This document shows, piece after piece, positions 10,983 through 20,024 of a stretch of DNA of 43,598 nucleotides (the first letter of the stretch is position 1; every line of letters begins with the position of its first letter). The stretch is taken from positions 1 to 43,598 of the forward strand of contig JBBSWJ010000021.1 of NCBI GenBank assembly GCA_038046345.1, read 5' to 3'. The stretch comes from Nanobdellota archaeon (GTDB lineage Archaea > Nanobdellota > Nanobdellia > SCGC-AAA011-G17 > JACPNG01). The notes under the pieces are model-generated. The model was not told the origin of the DNA. It made no database searches and saw nothing but the letters and a program-made list of their open reading frames with translations. The position numbers and the translations under genes are program-made.

Positions 10983-11104
10983 CGCCGAGAGCAGGATTTG
11001 AACCTGCATATCCGTAAGGAAACGGGATCTTCGCAAGATTAACCCATAGCAATCATACGCTCATTAAAAATGATCCGCGCAATACCAGGTTATGCGATCT
11101 CGGC
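10983..11104 (-). tRNA. tRNA-Ser(GCT) with two BHB introns (29/30, 20 nt, 11055..11074; 37/38, 18 nt, 11029..11046)
   Basis: GCCGAGA/TCTCGGC acceptor with G discriminator, GCAGG-TTCAAAT-CCTGC T arm, long variable arm. Removing both introns gives CGGGA-TT-GCT-AA-TCCCG and an 84-nt mature tRNA. CCA is not encoded. Confidence 0.9.
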
Positions 11105-12010: not shown

Positions 12011-12091
12011 CAACACTTCTTAAATAATTATTACCTGCCTAACAACGATAAGCGATAGTTTTAAAAGTAATCTTCTGAGCATTTATAGCAT

Positions 12092-12251
12092 AGCAGGGTA
12101 GGACAGCTAGGAGTGTCCGTCACTAATTAAAAATTAGCGGAATGGGCTCATAGGCTGGATAAATGTTTAACATATCCGGGCTGAGACACCCGAAAATCTA
12201 GTATTGTATACTGGGTCGGTTGGGTCGAAGGTTCAAATCCTTCCCCTGCTA
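12092..12251 (+). tRNA. Initiator tRNA-Met(CAT) with three introns (28/29, 12122..12143; 37/38, 12153..12187; about 44/45, about 12195..12222)
   Basis: A1-U72 acceptor AGCAGGG/CCCTGCT, three G-C pairs in the anticodon stem, CT-CAT-AA loop after splicing, GAAGG-TTCAAAT-CCTTC T arm. Removing 22+35+28 nt leaves 75 nt. Confidence 0.9.
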
Positions 12252-12276
12252 GTTTCTTTTGTTATAACCGAACTAT

Positions 12277-12937: not shown

Positions 12938-13594
12938 ATGGTATTTGACAAGCTTATCAGATGGCTGATTTATATCACGATATTCTGTATGATTCTATTC
13001 TTCTTCTGGATGCTTTTGTTTAAACAAGATTATTTATTCGCTGTTGTAGCACTATTATTAATCATTGTAGCTTGCATTCCTTTAATTCTTAACCTTAAGT
13101 TTAAAGAAAAAGTTCCTTTAGAATTACATGGACTTTGGATGTTAATGATTAGTTTTCATTTCTTTGCTGCAATGCTTGATCTTTATTCGAATCCAAAATC
13201 TTTTTTCACTGATGATTTTAATCATTTGTTCGGTGGCGTGGTGCTTACTACTATCGGATTCTTCATGCTTCTAGCACTAGATAATTATAAAGAACACAAA
13301 TTATCCATCCCGCTTATTGGAATTTTTGCCTTTACTTTTGCTGTAACACTCGGGGTTATATGGGAAGTTATTGAATTCTCATTAGACAATGTTTTCAGAC
13401 TTGAAACACAAGCTGGATTTATGTTTCATAATGGCGACTTAATTTGGTCATTTAGCAGAGATACAATGATAGACTTAATTGAAGATTCTTCTTCAGCTGC
13501 TATAACCAGCTTTTTGCTTGTACACTTTTCAAGGAAAGTTCCAAAAGAAAAACTTGAACATTATGCTGGTCCTCTAAGACAATATCTGGCATAG
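12938..13594 (+). CDS. Multi-pass membrane protein, DUF2238/YjdF-like
   Basis: DDFNHLFGG, WEVIEF and DTMIDL motifs in TM context. Confidence 0.65.
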   Translation: MVFDKLIRWLIYITIFCMILFFFWMLLFKQDYLFAVVALLLIIVACIPLILNLKFKEKVPLELHGLWMLMISFHFFAAMLDLYSNPKSFFTDDFNHLFGGVVLTTIGFFMLLALDNYKEHKLSIPLIGIFAFTFAVTLGVIWEVIEFSLDNVFRLETQAGFMFHNGDLIWSFSRDTMIDLIEDSSSAAITSFLLVHFSRKVPKEKLEHYAGPLRQYLA

Positions 13595-13624
13595 TTTTAT
13601 ATAGACTTACTCTAAATGAGGATT

Positions 13625-14305
13625 ATGGGATTGATCTGTGGTATTGATGATAGCGGAAGTGAATAAGCAGGAAACTATTATTCTCCGAAAGGTCCTGTCA
13701 TCGGTCCTATGGTGCTAGCTGGTGTTGTATTTGAAGAATCAGAATTAAAATATTTAGAAACTACTGATATCAAAGACTCTAAGTTATTATCCAAGAAAAA
13801 ACGCGAAGAATTGTTTAAGTTCATAACAAAAAACTGTAAACGATATGACATACAAATTGTCTCGCCTAAAGCAATTGATGACAAGGAAAAAAATGGACTT
13901 AACTTAAATGACCTTGAAGCAATGAAATGCGCTGAGATTATTAATGTCCTTAGCCCAGACAAAGCTATTATTGATTGCCCATCTAACAATATCAAGGCTT
14001 GGAGCAATACAGTTAAAAAATATCTAACAAATAAATGCGAGATAATTGCTGAACATAAAGCAGACTTAAACCATAAAATCTGCGGAGCGGCATCTATTCT
14101 TGCAAAATGTACTCGTGATAACGAAATAGCAAAAATACAATCTAAGATTAAAACACCGATAGGTTCCGGATACCCATCTGATCCCGTTACAAAAAAATTC
14201 ATTCAAGAAAATCATGATAAATACCAAGATATATTTCGCAAATCTTGGGCTACGTACAAGAAAATAGCCGATCAAAAAAATCAGGGTTTATTGGAAGATT
14301 ATTAA
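13625..14305 (+). CDS. rnhB: Ribonuclease HII, two exons (13625..13659 and 13690..14305), 216 aa after splicing
   Basis: Exon 1 gives MGLICGIDDSG(AG). Joined to exon 2 (A)GGTCCT it gives DDSGRGPVIGPMVLAG. Rest of the protein has KDSKLL, LNDLE, EHKAD, AASILAK, GSGYPSDP. The ORF track (13709..14305) misses the catalytic N-terminus. Confidence 0.92.
13660..13689 (+). other. Archaeal-type (BHB/BHL) intron in a protein-coding gene
   Basis: Central helix CGGA(13654-57)/TCCG(13684-87), 5' bulge AG^T, 3' cut AA^A, intron stem GAATAA/TTATTC, in-frame TAA at 13664-66, exon-exon helix GATGATAG/CTGTCATC. Confidence 0.85.
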
Positions 14306-15017: not shown

Positions 15018-18000
15018 ATGGCTACAATAAAAGCATTACGCCTTAGAGGGTTTAAATCCTTTCCAAAACAAGTAGAAATACCGTTTGGAGATGGATATAA
15101 TATAGTTATTGGGCCGAACGGTTCTGGCAAAAGCTGTAGTTATAATACCATAATTACTTTATCTGATGGGCAAGAAATAAAAATTGGGGACCTTGTTGAA
15201 GAAAAATTAAAAACTGGTTGGCTCCACAGAGAATTAGATGATGGTGTTCATTGTCGTAGTAAACAGCCTGTAGAAGTATTGTCTCTTAATCCTTGGTCAA
15301 TGAAAGAAGAGGGGATGTATGTTTCTCAGTTTATTAAACGTGAAGGTGAACCTTACCTTTTTGAGATTACAACCAACACAGGCAAAAAAGTAAGAACAAC
15401 TGGCTGCCATCCAGTTATTGTTTTCAAAGATGGACAAGTCACAAGTTCTTTAGTAAAAAATTTAAAAGAAGGGAGTTTAATTGCATCTCCGAGAGTAATC
15501 CACACAAATGGTTTAGAAAATGAAAAAAATTTTGCTCGCTTATTCGGATATTTAGTAGGAGACGGATATCTTAGAACTGATAGCATACAATTTGGGAACA
15601 ATACCAAAGAAATTATTGATGATGTTAAAGACTTAATGAAGAAGTTATTTAATGCAACACCATATGAAAGCAATGGAAAGAATAATTATACCAAGCTTAT
15701 TTATCGGCAAAAAAATGTTAGAAAGAACGTCCTTGATTTAATAAGAAACAACGAAGAAAAATATACAACAGAACATAAATACATACCTAATCATTTCTTA
15801 AACAAAGACATTGAGACCATAACACACTTACTTGCAGGTTTATTTGATACTGATGGCCATATAAACAAGAAAAACCCGATAATTGAATTCACAACAAAAA
15901 ATGAGAGATTAGCAAACCAAATCCAACAATTATTGCTCCGCATTGGGATTATAGCCCGTAAAAAGAAACGGATGTGTTCTGCTACAAATACCGTTAATAA
16001 AATAAAAAGACCATATTATTATCTTTATATTGAGTCTCAAGAAAATTTATGTAGGTTTTATATCAATATTCCATTACGTTGTAAGTATAAGAAAGAGCGC
16101 CTAGAAAAACATATTAAAAATAAGATAGTGTCTAATATGAATATTGATGTTTTACCAAGAGAAACTAATTTATTGATTAGGAAAGCAGTTGAGCTTCTTG
16201 GTATTAATGTTAAGTCATTTAAAAAAAAAATCCCTAGACTTGCAGCATACATGGAGAATCGTTGTAGCCCTACACGAGAAGGTCTTAAAATTGTACTGCT
16301 AATTTTAACCGATAAGCTTTTACAGATCAAAGAGGCCGGATTAGAATTACACCGAGACCAGTTTAATCTTGTTCAAACTATGGATCAATTAAACATTTCA
16401 GGTGCTTCAGCAAGTAAAGCTATTAATTTAAACAAGCAAATTATTCGTGATTGTTGGGCTACCGGCAAGTTCACACCAACATCAAGAAATCTTAATAATT
16501 TTTTTAATTTTATTAGTTCTGCTATAGAATCTAGGCTAATAGAATTACAAGTTATTATGAACACTTTACATCATCTAGCTCATTCAGATATTTTCTGGGA
16601 TAGAATTACTTCAATTAATAATGTTCCTGGAGAAAAATATGTATATGATCTTACCATACCAAAGAACCATAATTTCATAGGGGACGGCATCTTCGTTCAT
16701 AATTCCAACATCATGGATGCTTTCACATTTGTATTAGGCAAGACGTCTGCTAAGGCTATGCGCGCTGAAAAATCTGCAAGTCTTATATTTCATGGTGGAA
16801 AAAAAGGAAGCCCTGCAAAGGACGCGCAAGTAGACATTATTTTTGATAACACTAGCAAAAGCTTTCCATTGAAAGAAAAAGAAATAAGAATATCCCGCCT
16901 TGTTAAAGGCACAGGACAGTCTACTTACAAAATTAATGAAGATACAGTTACTAAACAACAAGTTCTTGAATTATTAAGCTCTGCTAAGATCGATCCCGAC
17001 GGGCATAACATCATCCTACAGGGGGATATTGTTAGATTCATGGAGATGCGCCCCAACGACAGGCGTGAACTAATTGAAGAAATTGCTGGGATTTCTGTTT
17101 ACGAAGACAAGAAAGATAAAGCTATGAACGAACTAACAAAAGTTGACACAAAGTTGAACGAAGCTAAGATCATTTTGACTGAGAGAGATGTTTATATGAA
17201 AGAATTAAAAAAAGAATGTGATCAAGCAAGAAAATACAGGGAGTTGGAAAGTAACATCAAGAGCAATAAGGCTACTTACATAAATATTCAGATCAAAGCT
17301 AGAACTGAAAAAAAAGAAGAGTTTGATAAAAAGATTAATGATTACAATGAACGTATTAAAAAAATTAATACTAATATATCCGAACTAAAAAATAAACTCT
17401 CTGAAAAAAGAAGCGAGCTCGATCAGGTTAATGCCACTGTAGAAGCAAGAGGCGAGATCGAACAGAAAAAACTACACCACGATATTGAAGAACTAAAAAC
17501 TAATTTTGCAGTCAAAGAATCACGTTTAAATGTTTGTAATTCAGAAATAACTAAAATCAATTCCCGCAAAAAACAATTATTACAAAGTTTAGACTCAATT
17601 AAGTCAAAGATTTCTTCTTTAAAGAATCAAAAAGAAACAATTCTAAACGAAGAGGCTAAACTAAAAGAAGAAGGAAAATATTTAGAAGCAAATATCAAAA
17701 GCTTCCGCGAAAAACACAATCTTGGTGATGAAATCAACAGTCTGGACCTAATTGATAATAAAATTGACAATTTACAAACAGGGATAACAAAGCTGCAAGA
17801 AAACCGGCAAGATATAACCAGAAAGATCGATACATTAAATTTTCAGCTCTCTAAAACAAATGAGTCACATAATAAGAACGATATTGAAAACATTAAAAAT
17901 CTTAAGATTAAATTTAAAGATATTACATCAAACTTATCAAAAAGTTTAAATGAAAATTCTTCCCTGACTATACAATTATCAAACTCAAGAAGAAAACTAT

Positions 18001-20024
18001 TTGAAATCGATGAAAACCTTCAAAAAACCTCACTGAAACAAAACTCTTTTAATGATTTTTCTGGCATGGATCTAACAATTAAAAAACTTATTGACTTAAA
18101 GATTAACGGAGTTCATGGTCCGGTATTTTCGCTTGGTAAAGTACCAAGTAAATACTCAATGGCATTAAGTGTAGCTGCTGGCCCAAGACTAAAGAGTATT
18201 GTAGTGGACAGCGATGTAACTGCATCAAAATGCATACAAATACTTAAGGAAAAGAAGCTTGGAGTTATCACATTCCTGCCACTAAACAAGCTTAAAGTAC
18301 GCGCTCCTGACACTCACACTGAACAATTAAAAAACAATGAAGGAGTTCTTGGAAAGGCCAATGAATTAGTGGAATTTAACAAAAAATATAGCAGTGTTTT
18401 TTCTTATGTGTTCGGAGATACACTTGTTATTGACTCTATCGCAACAGGAAGAAAAATAGGGGTTGGCAGAGCAAGGATGGTAACACTTGATGGTGACCTA
18501 TTAGAAACATCAGGTGCTATGGTCGGAGGATTCAGAAGAAAATCAGCTATCGGTGGTTTTAAGGAAAAAGATCTTGAAGCAGATCTTGTCAAACTTGAAG
18601 AAGAACTGACCAAGACTAAAAAATTAGTTGATGCATTAGAGAATAACTTGGAATTAAATAATGAAGCTATAAGAAGATTACGCGAAGAAAAGTCGCTGTT
18701 AGAAGCAGAAATTTTAAAGTTTGAACGTGCCTTTGGAGTTAATGATATTGATGAAGTCTATAAAAAACAAAAAGCCTTAAAATCTGAATTACAAGACCTT
18801 GAAAAATCCCAGAAAAATATTTCTCAAGAAATTAATCAAAATATTCAAGAACTTAGCAAACTAAAAAAGCTGCGTGATAATGCTAAAGAAGCATTAAAAG
18901 ATTCTTCTGTTTCAAACACTTTTGAAAAATTCGATGAAAAACGGCGCGATATTCATGAAAAATTAGTTCAACGCGCGGCTACGTTAAAAAACATATCACA
19001 ACAGGTGTCTGACATGTATGAACCAGAGCTTGAAAAAACAAAGAAGATTATTGACAGTTCTGAAAAAGAGCTTATTGCTTTCACAAATGAATCTTCACAC
19101 TTAGAAGCTGAGCTAAAGAACTCTAAAGGTATGTTAAAAGAAAAAGAATTAGCTGAAAAAAAATTCTATGATGACTTTAAAGGAATATTCCAAAAAAGAA
19201 ACAAACTAAATGAATCTTTGTTAAAGATGGAACAGCAGGTTATTCAAGAAAATGATCACGTTAGAGAGATAGAACACAAAGCTCAAACAATTGACATAGA
19301 CAGAGCAAAAATTAAAGCTGAAATTGCAGGTCTTGAAGAAGAGTTTAAAGATTTTAAAGATGAAAAATTACGGCGTGGTCTAAGCTTAGAACAGTTACGC
19401 AGTGAGATTAATAAATTTGAACATTTAATGCAAAATATAGGGTCTGTTAATCTTAGGGCCCTTGAAGTATTTGAAACCGCTGAAAAAGAATATAATGTAA
19501 TTCTAGATAAAGCTAGCAAATTAAATTTAGAAAAAGATGATGTGTTACGCATGATGTCAGAAATAGACTCTCAGAAAAAGGATTTATTTATGAAAACATT
19601 TAAGGTTCTTCATAAAAATTTTAAGAATATTTTTTCTAATCTTTCTACTAAAGGAGAAGCTCATTTAATAGTAGAAGACGAAGATAATATATTTGAAACC
19701 GGAGTTGATATCCAGGTTCATATTACTGGAAGTAAATACCTCGATATAAAAAGTTTATCAGGCGGAGAAAAGACCATGGCTGCATTAGCATTTATTTTTG
19801 CTATACAAGATATGGAACCAGCTGCGTTTTATCTATTGGATGAAGTTGATGCTGCACTTGACAAGAAGAACTCTGAACTGTTATCTAAACTGATTAAAAA
19901 ATACTCTTCCGGAGCACAATACATCGTTGTATCACACAATGACACAATTATCAATGAAGCTGACCAGATATACGGTATTTCTATGCAAGATGCTGTGAGC
20001 AAAATTGTTAGTTTAAAACTTTGA
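15018..20024 (+). CDS. smc: Chromosome segregation protein SMC, intein-containing precursor (about 1144 aa after splicing)
   Basis: GFKSF, GPNGSGK|SNIMD Walker A split by an intein, ILQGD, coiled coils, hinge (GRARMVTLDGD), LSGGEKT, LLDEVDAALD. Confidence 0.96.
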   Translation: MATIKALRLRGFKSFPKQVEIPFGDGYNIVIGPNGSGKSCSYNTIITLSDGQEIKIGDLVEEKLKTGWLHRELDDGVHCRSKQPVEVLSLNPWSMKEEGMYVSQFIKREGEPYLFEITTNTGKKVRTTGCHPVIVFKDGQVTSSLVKNLKEGSLIASPRVIHTNGLENEKNFARLFGYLVGDGYLRTDSIQFGNNTKEIIDDVKDLMKKLFNATPYESNGKNNYTKLIYRQKNVRKNVLDLIRNNEEKYTTEHKYIPNHFLNKDIETITHLLAGLFDTDGHINKKNPIIEFTTKNERLANQIQQLLLRIGIIARKKKRMCSATNTVNKIKRPYYYLYIESQENLCRFYINIPLRCKYKKERLEKHIKNKIVSNMNIDVLPRETNLLIRKAVELLGINVKSFKKKIPRLAAYMENRCSPTREGLKIVLLILTDKLLQIKEAGLELHRDQFNLVQTMDQLNISGASASKAINLNKQIIRDCWATGKFTPTSRNLNNFFNFISSAIESRLIELQVIMNTLHHLAHSDIFWDRITSINNVPGEKYVYDLTIPKNHNFIGDGIFVHNSNIMDAFTFVLGKTSAKAMRAEKSASLIFHGGKKGSPAKDAQVDIIFDNTSKSFPLKEKEIRISRLVKGTGQSTYKINEDTVTKQQVLELLSSAKIDPDGHNIILQGDIVRFMEMRPNDRRELIEEIAGISVYEDKKDKAMNELTKVDTKLNEAKIILTERDVYMKELKKECDQARKYRELESNIKSNKATYINIQIKARTEKKEEFDKKINDYNERIKKINTNISELKNKLSEKRSELDQVNATVEARGEIEQKKLHHDIEELKTNFAVKESRLNVCNSEITKINSRKKQLLQSLDSIKSKISSLKNQKETILNEEAKLKEEGKYLEANIKSFREKHNLGDEINSLDLIDNKIDNLQTGITKLQENRQDITRKIDTLNFQLSKTNESHNKNDIENIKNLKIKFKDITSNLSKSLNENSSLTIQLSNSRRKLFEIDENLQKTSLKQNSFNDFSGMDLTIKKLIDLKINGVHGPVFSLGKVPSKYSMALSVAAGPRLKSIVVDSDVTASKCIQILKEKKLGVITFLPLNKLKVRAPDTHTEQLKNNEGVLGKANELVEFNKKYSSVFSYVFGDTLVIDSIATGRKIGVGRARMVTLDGDLLETSGAMVGGFRRKSAIGGFKEKDLEADLVKLEEELTKTKKLVDALENNLELNNEAIRRLREEKSLLEAEILKFERAFGVNDIDEVYKKQKALKSELQDLEKSQKNISQEINQNIQELSKLKKLRDNAKEALKDSSVSNTFEKFDEKRRDIHEKLVQRAATLKNISQQVSDMYEPELEKTKKIIDSSEKELIAFTNESSHLEAELKNSKGMLKEKELAEKKFYDDFKGIFQKRNKLNESLLKMEQQVIQENDHVREIEHKAQTIDIDRAKIKAEIAGLEEEFKDFKDEKLRRGLSLEQLRSEINKFEHLMQNIGSVNLRALEVFETAEKEYNVILDKASKLNLEKDDVLRMMSEIDSQKKDLFMKTFKVLHKNFKNIFSNLSTKGEAHLIVEDEDNIFETGVDIQVHITGSKYLDIKSLSGGEKTMAALAFIFAIQDMEPAAFYLLDEVDAALDKKNSELLSKLIKKYSSGAQYIVVSHNDTIINEADQIYGISMQDAVSKIVSLKL
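15132..16703 (+). mobile_element. Intein (524 aa) with LAGLIDADG homing endonuclease, in the SMC P-loop
   Basis: Block A SCSYNTIITLSDG, block B TTGCHP, LAGLIDADG-like LFGYLVGDG and LLAGLFDTDG, block F/G VYDLTIPKNHNFIGDGIFVHN followed by +1 Ser. Confidence 0.93.

Follow-up and report, generated by a model that had tools for sequence, protein, structure and literature searches.

The stretch of DNA examined here, referred to as the window, is a 43,598 nt contig (C21; GenBank accession number JBBSWJ010000021.1) from the genome of a Nanobdellota archaeon. It contains an rnhB gene, encoding ribonuclease HII (RNase HII), that is interrupted close to its start by a 30 nt insert. The genome is 821 kb with 34% GC in 35 contigs and is estimated to be 97% complete. 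DNA of the organism was detected in groundwater and river metagenomes, and its relatives in the public record carry the labels Woesearchaeota, Nanoarchaeota or Nanoarchaeia. Judged from the sequence, the insert (bases 13660-13689) is very likely an intron of the relaxed bulge-helix-bulge (BHB) type, of the kind cut by the tRNA splicing endonuclease EndA, that is genuinely spliced from the transcript of the only RNase HII gene of the genome.

The interrupted rnhB gene

A preliminary description of the locus placed an ATG at 13625, followed by a 30 nt insert with an in-frame TAA and an exon 2 resuming as A-GGT-CCT-GTC-ATC, and all of these lie where it put them, with exon 2 resuming at 13690 (Table 1). 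The second exon matches the RNase HII family (PF01351, E 1.9e-36) and aligns with residues 12-213 of the RNase HII of P. horikoshii (1UAX). As the alignment with solved enzymes begins at residue 12, exon 1 represents exactly the missing first 11 residues; it is collinear with residues 1-11 of the solved archaeal enzymes and with the N-terminus encoded by the intronless gene of the closest relative (G005). Joining base 13659 to 13690 produces an open reading frame (ORF) of 651 nt, encoding 216 amino acids (aa) plus a stop codon, and its N-terminus, MGLICGIDDSGRGPVIGPMVLA, is collinear with MKLICGIDDAGRGPVIGPMVLA of G005, residue for residue and free of gaps. Removal of 13660-13689 leaves GGA-AGA-GGT and restores DDSG-R-GPVIGP (motif GIDDSGRGP), the predicted spliced junction being ...GATAGCGGAAG joined to AGGTCCTGTC... 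The catalytic segment starts with D-D (D8 and D9) rather than D-E, as it does in the intronless G005 and G041, and further on the Asp residues of IIDCPS and EHKAD are aligned with those of solved RNase HII. D8, D9 and these later Asp residues correspond to the four acidic catalytic residues characteristic of RNase HII.

The RNase HII family matches a single place in the genome (rnhB is single-copy, subject to the estimated completeness), and the family search found no second, intact rnhB in the genome. As the only RNase HII gene is broken within its catalytic motif by an insert resembling a tRNA intron, splicing of the mRNA is very probably needed.

The insert is not an assembly artefact, a possibility raised with the preliminary description. 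It is present with no differences in DNA contigs from two other studies that bridge the site, one of 1301 nt (run X5) and one of 276 nt from a river metagenome (X10, spanning 13453-13728). A third run contained a relative with its own insert following ...GCTGGTAG.

Table 1. Features of the rnhB locus and of its predicted intron in the window
Feature	Position	Strand	Evidence or remark
Possible archaeal TATA box, TTTATATA	13596-13603	+	About 22-29 nt 5' of the ATG; tentative, read from the sequence
Possible Shine-Dalgarno sequence, GAGG	13618-13621	+	Tentative, read from the sequence
rnhB exon 1 (35 nt)	13625-13659	+	MGLICGIDDSG plus AG of the Arg codon; holds D8 and D9
Outer exon-exon helix, 5' strand	13643-13653	+	Minimum-free-energy fold; 11 bp
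Central 4 bp helix H, 5' strand CGGA (exon 1)	13654-13657	+	Minimum-free-energy fold
5' bulge AG^U (3 nt)	13658-13660	+	Predicted 5' cut at 13659/13660
Predicted BHB-type intron (30 nt)	13660-13689	+	Sequence, fold and family alignment; model R1, 60.5 bits
Intron hairpin GAAUAA/UUAUUC plus loop	13661-13683	+	Minimum-free-energy fold; stem 13661-13666 with 13678-13683 (6 bp)
In-frame TAA	13664-13666	+	Unspliced frame ends after 13 codons (...S-E-TAA)
Central 4 bp helix H, 3' strand UCCG (intron)	13684-13687	+	Minimum-free-energy fold
3' loop AA^AGGUC (7 nt)	13688-13694	+	Predicted 3' cut at 13689/13690
rnhB exon 2	13690-14305	+	Last base of the Arg codon followed by GPVIGP... up to the stop codon; RNase HII domain
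Outer exon-exon helix, 3' strand	13695-13705	+	Minimum-free-energy fold

Predicted fold of the insert

The minimum-free-energy (MFE) structure of 13640-13710 has an energy of -21.7 kcal/mol, makes up 0.71 of the ensemble and has a z score of -3.2, with one of 200 shuffled sequences folding equally well. Its architecture is exactly that proposed in the preliminary description, and the 11 bp outer helix contains the 8 bp helix GAUGAUAG/CUGUCAUC claimed there. The strict form of the motif, hBHBh', has both cuts in 3 nt bulges. Here the 5' bulge is 3 nt and the 3' loop 7 nt, and as the 3' site lies in this 7 nt loop the motif is relaxed rather than strict.

The predicted cuts that restore the protein fall 2 nt 3' of the central helix on either strand. 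A cut after the second nucleotide had been proposed to restore DDSGRGP, which is borne out by the 216 aa ORF collinear with G005, and cleavage between bulge residues 2 and 3 is the rule published for the BHB intron of cbf5 (PMC2738675). A 4/4 central helix with a stem of 6 bp or more abutting it was retained in six of 2,000,000 shuffles of the insert, and 75 of the 819,393 windows of 30 nt in the genome (one strand) obey the central-helix and stem rule. No Rfam family matched at the intron.

Equivalent inserts at the same site in other archaea

A search of 60 relatives from the same order with the exon 2 protein revealed eight further genomes in which an insert of 24-31 nt separates the AG of the GRGP Arg codon from its third base. 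The inserts of these eight relatives are unrelated in sequence. The nine MFE folds, of the window and the relatives, share one architecture, and the joined exons read G(I/V/T)D(D/E)(A/S)GRG. The preliminary description had envisaged that relatives might carry the same interruption with no conserved fold and an intact rnhB elsewhere; the fold is the same in all eight, and no intact second rnhB was found in the genome of the window. All nine intron-bearing genes from the protein search split an AGR Arg codon, and several intronless genes use CGN (CGA in G005 and CGT or CGC in the others); it may be that the intron constrains AG in the 5' bulge or has a preference for this dinucleotide.

A wider survey used a degenerate DNA pattern covering both exon ends, applied to one genome per species for 185,579 species. 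The pattern matched 117 loci, 87 of which read as RNase HII, and the other 30 (29 bacterial and one haloarchaeal) were chance matches without rnhB. The 87 rnhB inserts are from 87 species-level genomes, are 21-39 nt long and lie at the same Arg codon; their sequences are unrelated, but they share the fold. Equivalent inserts occur in DPANN, Asgard, Thermoplasmatales and Bathyarchaeota genomes, and the intron is thus not peculiar to the lineage of the window but recurs in several archaeal phyla. As the insert length is divisible by 3 in 36 of the 87, each of which has an in-frame stop, and the other 51 shift the frame, none of the 87 could be translated through. A cut 2 nt after the central helix rebuilds GRGP in the nine genes from the protein search and at all 87 loci found with the pattern.

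In a search with a covariance model (R1), built from an alignment of 89 sequences (A1), intron-bearing sites span 60-86 nt and score 43-73 bits, compared with 39 nt and at most 39 bits for intronless sites. Using R1, the intron was found in 31 of 151 genomes of the window's own order (one more is doubtful) and in 13 of its 29 families, with intronless matches in about 62 genomes. The order around a 2.9 Mb Asgard genome labelled Promethearchaeota has the intron in 49 of 101 genomes, nearly all of 30 nt, and six intronless matches, while the order around a 2.3 Mb Thermoplasmatales genome has it in 12 of 101, with 10 intronless matches. The rnhB genes of two relatives (G054:C3:5710-7800 and G019:C59:14691-16709) have a frame of 686-691 aa in which the RNase HII match is split in two, which suggests an intein-sized insertion in each; by R1, G054 carries the N-terminal BHB intron in addition.

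Fewer than 50 open codons precede exon 1 in frame at about 84 of the 87 loci. Longer in-frame stretches of 63, 99, 108 and 353 codons were found at L116, L086, L157 and L096, respectively. The 353-codon ORF, on a Woesearchaeota contig (L096:1722-2792, + strand), runs in frame into exon 1 and has helix-turn-helix (HTH) matches. It also has a weak, sub-threshold match to LAGLIDADG_3 (E 0.005), the only such match among L086, L157 and L096, and in a scan limited to the ORFs fused in frame to exon 1 at these three loci no association of a homing endonuclease with the intron was seen.

Covariation of the paired positions

The 5' strand of the central helix reads N-G-G-N, made up of the third base of an Ala codon (Ser in the window) and the Gly codon that follows, and both N positions are synonymous sites. 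In a set of 85 distinct sequences, both sites are matched by a pairing partner, at intron positions -3 and -6, in 94% of cases versus 49% after shuffling (maximum 59% in 2000 shuffles), and the whole central helix is paired in 97.1%, compared with 74.5% in shuffles (maximum 80%) and 28-52% in slid registers. In A1, 97.2% of cells in the central helix are paired, and each variable position shows six pair types; for the intron stem the figure is 92.1%, and all six of its pairs have compensatory changes on both sides. The covariation score of A1 is 0.505, versus 0.17 when shuffled (none of 500 shuffles reached the observed value, a count that, like the other shuffle counts, is not a probability as the sequences are related) and 0.06-0.14 in slid registers. 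The number of pair types seen across hosts of different phyla does not depend on the relatedness of the sequences.

Columns 4-11 of A1, in the outer helix, are paired with columns 68-75 in 83.8% of cells. Most members have a short 3 bp helix (GAR-GC with G-GN-C, paired in 79% of cells) that leaves a 4 nt 3' bulge. The window gene has Ser-AGC for Ala-GCN, and a longer continuous outer helix and the 7 nt loop replace the short helix. The third positions of the Glu GAR and Gly GGN codons correlate, which fits two pairing registers but would also fit plain GC-content bias.

Phylogeny of the host genes

A phylogeny of the exon 2 proteins was built using FastTree, without bootstrapping and with intronless sequences only from the window's own order. 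The hosts group by major taxon, with support of 99 for each of Asgard, Thermoplasmatales and Bathyarchaeota, 94 for Aenigmatarchaeota and 98 for Woesearchaeota/Nanoarchaeota, indicating that rnhB was inherited within these groups and was not spread as one intron-bearing allele. The window gene and an intronless gene from the same family are sisters (support 98), and at least 15 changes between presence and absence of the intron are needed on the tree. The intron may have been gained repeatedly at one site, or it may be old and have been lost many times. Eight of the loci (L076, L105, L109, L128, L130, L147, L153 and L112) are labelled Methanosarcinales or Nitrososphaeria. Contigs labelled Methanosarcinales fall inside the Woesearchaeota clade and one labelled Nitrososphaeria falls with Aenigmatarchaeota, making the labels or the binning doubtful.

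Splicing machinery and other introns of the genome

One EndA gene was found, on contig C32, and encodes a protein of 180 aa with matches to PF02778 and PF01974; a second EndA gave no match in the genome even at E values up to 10. Residues 14-180 align with residues 5-171 of the homotetrameric M. jannaschii enzyme (1A79, E 1e-37) with no insertion or extra loop. The catalytic Tyr/His/Lys triad of solved EndAs is matched, and the 6-residue insert of the N. equitans alpha subunit is absent. By gene count this EndA is of the alpha4 type, and its sequence corresponds to no known broad-specificity form. The types of EndA shown to cut relaxed motifs are (alpha-beta)2 with loop L1 and epsilon2 with loop L2. 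The preliminary description had a relaxed motif that needs a broad-specificity EndA; the motif is relaxed, and the sole EndA is by its sequence a plain alpha-type enzyme. In DPANN lineages whose tRNA genes are heavily disrupted, however, Kaneta et al. noted EndAs of the alpha4 type (PMC5829648). RtcB is encoded on contig C24.

Introns were predicted by ARAGORN in approximately 14 of the 34 tRNA genes. The gene for tRNA-Leu(UAA), on contig C34, has a canonical 17 nt BHB intron with bulges AG^A and AA^A, and the claim that the tRNA introns of this genome follow the cut rule used for rnhB holds for it. Brute-force removal of introns from the multi-intron tRNAs, scored with ARAGORN, was noisy and gave a clean answer only for this tRNA.

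The expectation that other apparently broken genes may hide mRNA introns holds at least once more in the same genome. The aEF-2 gene (contig C5, minus strand, within 78481-78800) has a 33 nt insert with an in-frame stop between AHID and HGK, in the P-loop. This insert forms a strict hBHBh' motif with helix CCCAU/AUGGG, central helix AUCG/CGAU, bulges AU^U and AU^C and stem UUCUAU/AUAGAA. A mini-intein follows directly, from the Cys after HGK to ...VIHN/T near 77965. A genome-wide screen for mRNA introns (4/4 central helix, stem of 5 bp or more, restored reading frame) returned 858 candidates and was dropped, as this number in an AT-rich genome is too unspecific without homology checks.

Proposed splicing pathway and alternative explanations

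In the proposed pathway, bases 13643-13657 of exon 1 would pair with 13695-13705 of exon 2 and with bases 13684-13687 at the 3' end of the intron, and the intron would form a hairpin of its own. The fold would expose the 5' cut site in the 3 nt bulge AG^U and the 3' cut site 2 nt past the central helix (AA^A), EndA would cleave at the two predicted positions, and RtcB would ligate the exons and probably circularise the intron. The spliced mRNA, with GGA-AGA-GGT at the junction, would then direct synthesis of the complete 216 aa protein and the unspliced mRNA that of a 13-residue peptide, so that active RNase HII would be encoded by the spliced mRNA only. We infer that cutting and ligation occur, and which enzyme is responsible, from the sequence data. 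The assignment to the tRNA-type introns of the BHB family made in the preliminary description is supported by the presence of the site in 87 species-level genomes, the covarying helices, the lack of read-through, the presence of EndA and RtcB and the single copy of rnhB.

Several points weigh against this pathway. The 3' cut at the window locus would fall in a 7 nt loop instead of a 3 nt bulge, and alpha4-type EndAs, which the one in this genome resembles, were reported to be strict in vitro (PMC5829648). Exon 1 is only 35 nt, with the motif starting 18 nt past the start codon by the coordinates, and formation of the motif would have to compete with ribosomes initiating translation. Among RNA runs, none was found to contain the organism. 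The protein collection contains no protein of at least 90% identity to the spliced form; the only entry from this organism is a truncated ORF of 198 aa, and the next match is 61% identical.

That truncated ORF, which is all that gene callers report, and the in-frame stop 13 codons in would also be accounted for if rnhB were a pseudogene, inactivated by a small palindromic insertion (a miniature inverted-repeat transposable element-like sequence or a replication slip) and now decaying, and DPANN genomes lose genes readily. Against this, exon 2 encodes a full-length RNase HII domain that is intact and aligns with solved enzymes, exon 1 retains the start codon and the GIDD motif, and the gene is the sole rnhB in a genome estimated to be 97% complete. 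An interruption with fold-preserving compensatory changes in at least 87 species from several phyla is not a product of decay, and we consider a pseudogene very unlikely. The 198 aa ORF begins with an ATG at 13709 (GP-M-VLAG), and the insert could be tolerated if translation restarted at this Met to give an N-terminally truncated RNase HII with another role, the exon 1 peptide being irrelevant. Such a product would not include the first two acidic residues of the DEDD site, which lie within the first 11 residues of the solved enzymes. As many members have Leu rather than Met at this position (GPLV), and exon 1 is conserved across phyla together with its pairing to the intron, a restart seems highly improbable.

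The stable hairpin directly 3' of a Gly codon and the Gly codons on either side of the insert (GGA, 13655-13657, and GGT, 13691-13693) are features that would be compatible with recoding, whereby the ribosome bypasses the insert by hopping, as in phage T4 gene 60, or reads through it, with the hairpin as the signal. However, a hop from GGA to GGT would lose the conserved Arg-Gly of GRGP, and the AGR codon is rebuilt only by cuts 2 nt past the central helix, in the protein-search genes and at 87 of 87 loci. The inserts vary from 21 to 39 nt with 51 of 87 shifting the frame, and the covarying pairs are those of an EndA motif, a 4 bp helix with two cuts at a fixed 2 nt offset. Recoding thus has very little probability. 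It is less probable again that the insert is a real RNA intron removed by a different nuclease or by self-cleavage, and not by EndA and RtcB, although the position of the 3' site outside a canonical 3 nt bulge and the resemblance of the EndA to the strict alpha4 type would agree with this. At 30 nt the insert is too short for a group I or group II ribozyme and lacks an Rfam match, its geometry is exactly that used by EndA, and the same EndA is the sole candidate for removal of the tRNA and aEF-2 introns of this genome.

Beyond splicing by EndA and RtcB itself, the intron could be more than a passive passenger, as an element of long standing that enters the one codon again and again, or stays there, across DPANN, Asgard, Thermoplasmatales and Bathyarchaeota, and makes RNase HII synthesis conditional on these two enzymes, as an archaeal regulatory switch of the HAC1/XBP1 kind. 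We regard this as a rather doubtful proposition; if it were true, splicing of mRNA by the tRNA machinery would already have been common in the archaeal relatives of eukaryotes.

Comparison with known systems

An intron in the cbf5 pre-mRNA is known from Sulfolobales and Desulfurococcales (Yokobori 2009, PMC2738675), and according to the same paper splicing has been confirmed for no archaeal protein gene besides cbf5. Like the rnhB insert, the cbf5 intron is short, lacks an ORF, lies within the coding sequence, mostly has a relaxed BHB motif and is cut between bulge residues 2 and 3. It too is patchily distributed among relatives, implying both gain and loss, and misleads gene prediction. In contrast, the rnhB intron is in a different gene, interrupts the catalytic GIDEAGRGP motif some 35 nt past the start codon and is distributed far more widely, in DPANN, Asgard, Thermoplasmatales and Bathyarchaeota. 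Splicing of cbf5 is tied to the crenarchaeal heterotetrameric EndA and was demonstrated with cDNA, whereas the rnhB host has a single alpha-type EndA and splicing of rnhB is deduced from sequence. The rnhB intron is the same kind of element as that in cbf5 but in another gene, and is not a member of the cbf5 intron family. The BHB intron of cbf5 is reportedly also the subject of papers by Watanabe in 2002 and Yoshinari in 2006.

Marck and Grosjean are said to have described, in 2003, the BHB introns of archaeal tRNA and rRNA, with the hBHBh' form and the relaxed HBh', hBH and bulge-helix-loop (BHL) forms. The rnhB motif shares with these introns the 4 bp central helix, cuts 2 nt 3' of it on each strand and a hairpin in the intron (PMC5829648), and with the tRNA-Leu(UAA) intron of this genome, whose bulges are AG^A and AA^A, even the bulge letters agree. 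It differs in that the substrate is an mRNA, in which the strands of the exon helix also code and the pairing is achieved via synonymous third positions, and in that recognition gets no help from a mature tRNA body. The aEF-2 intron, a second mRNA intron of this organism, is similar in being short (33 nt), in interrupting a conserved catalytic motif (AHID/HGK) and in containing an in-frame stop, but its motif is strict hBHBh' with two 3 nt bulges while rnhB has the 7 nt 3' loop.

In the splicing of HAC1 and XBP1, Ire1 cuts two loops in the mRNA and a tRNA ligase or RtcB joins the exons, changing the frame. The outline is alike, as a structure-specific endonuclease and a tRNA ligase act on an mRNA. 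The nuclease, Ire1, is unrelated to EndA, however, and the system is eukaryotic with a proven regulatory role.

The proposed mechanism is a known one, and what is new is the host gene, how widely the element is distributed and which type of endonuclease this host has. Consistent with the preliminary description, which knew of no such case, no report of an intron in rnhB was found in the searchable full-text papers. In those papers, protein-spliced introns in archaeal coding sequences are confirmed only for cbf5, in Crenarchaeota, and are linked to a heterotetrameric endonuclease. Presence of the rnhB intron in about one-fifth of a DPANN order, half of an Asgard order and one-eighth of a Thermoplasmatales order would make splicing of mRNA by the tRNA machinery a recurrent event in archaea, including the lineage closest to eukaryotes. 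As affected rnhB genes are called as truncated ORFs or pseudogenes, gene calls, completeness estimates and metabolic inferences for metagenome-assembled genomes (MAGs) of DPANN and Asgard archaea would be affected. The intron would also provide a natural substrate for learning what these enzymes actually accept, as its relaxed motif is not part of a tRNA body and its hosts have endonucleases of alpha4-like, (alpha-beta)2 and alpha'2 types, and it raises the question in intron evolution of whether one site was struck repeatedly or an ancient intron was lost many times.

Other features of the window

Upstream of rnhB, the position of the TATA-like TTTATATA would suggest a very short leader for the rnhB mRNA. 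The ORF upstream (12938-13594) matched no Pfam family. Two tRNA genes precede it. The Rfam tRNA model spans 122 nt at 10983-11104 on the minus strand (36.9 bits), a length that implies one or more introns inside, and ARAGORN detected an intron-bearing tRNA at 12091-12252 on the plus strand. Downstream, an SMC ORF of 1668 aa (15018-20024, + strand) has an intein-like insertion right behind Walker A (GPNGSGKS/CSYN ... VHN/SNIM) containing the LAGLIDADG-type blocks LVGDGY and LFDTDGH, which is another intervening element in a catalytic loop.

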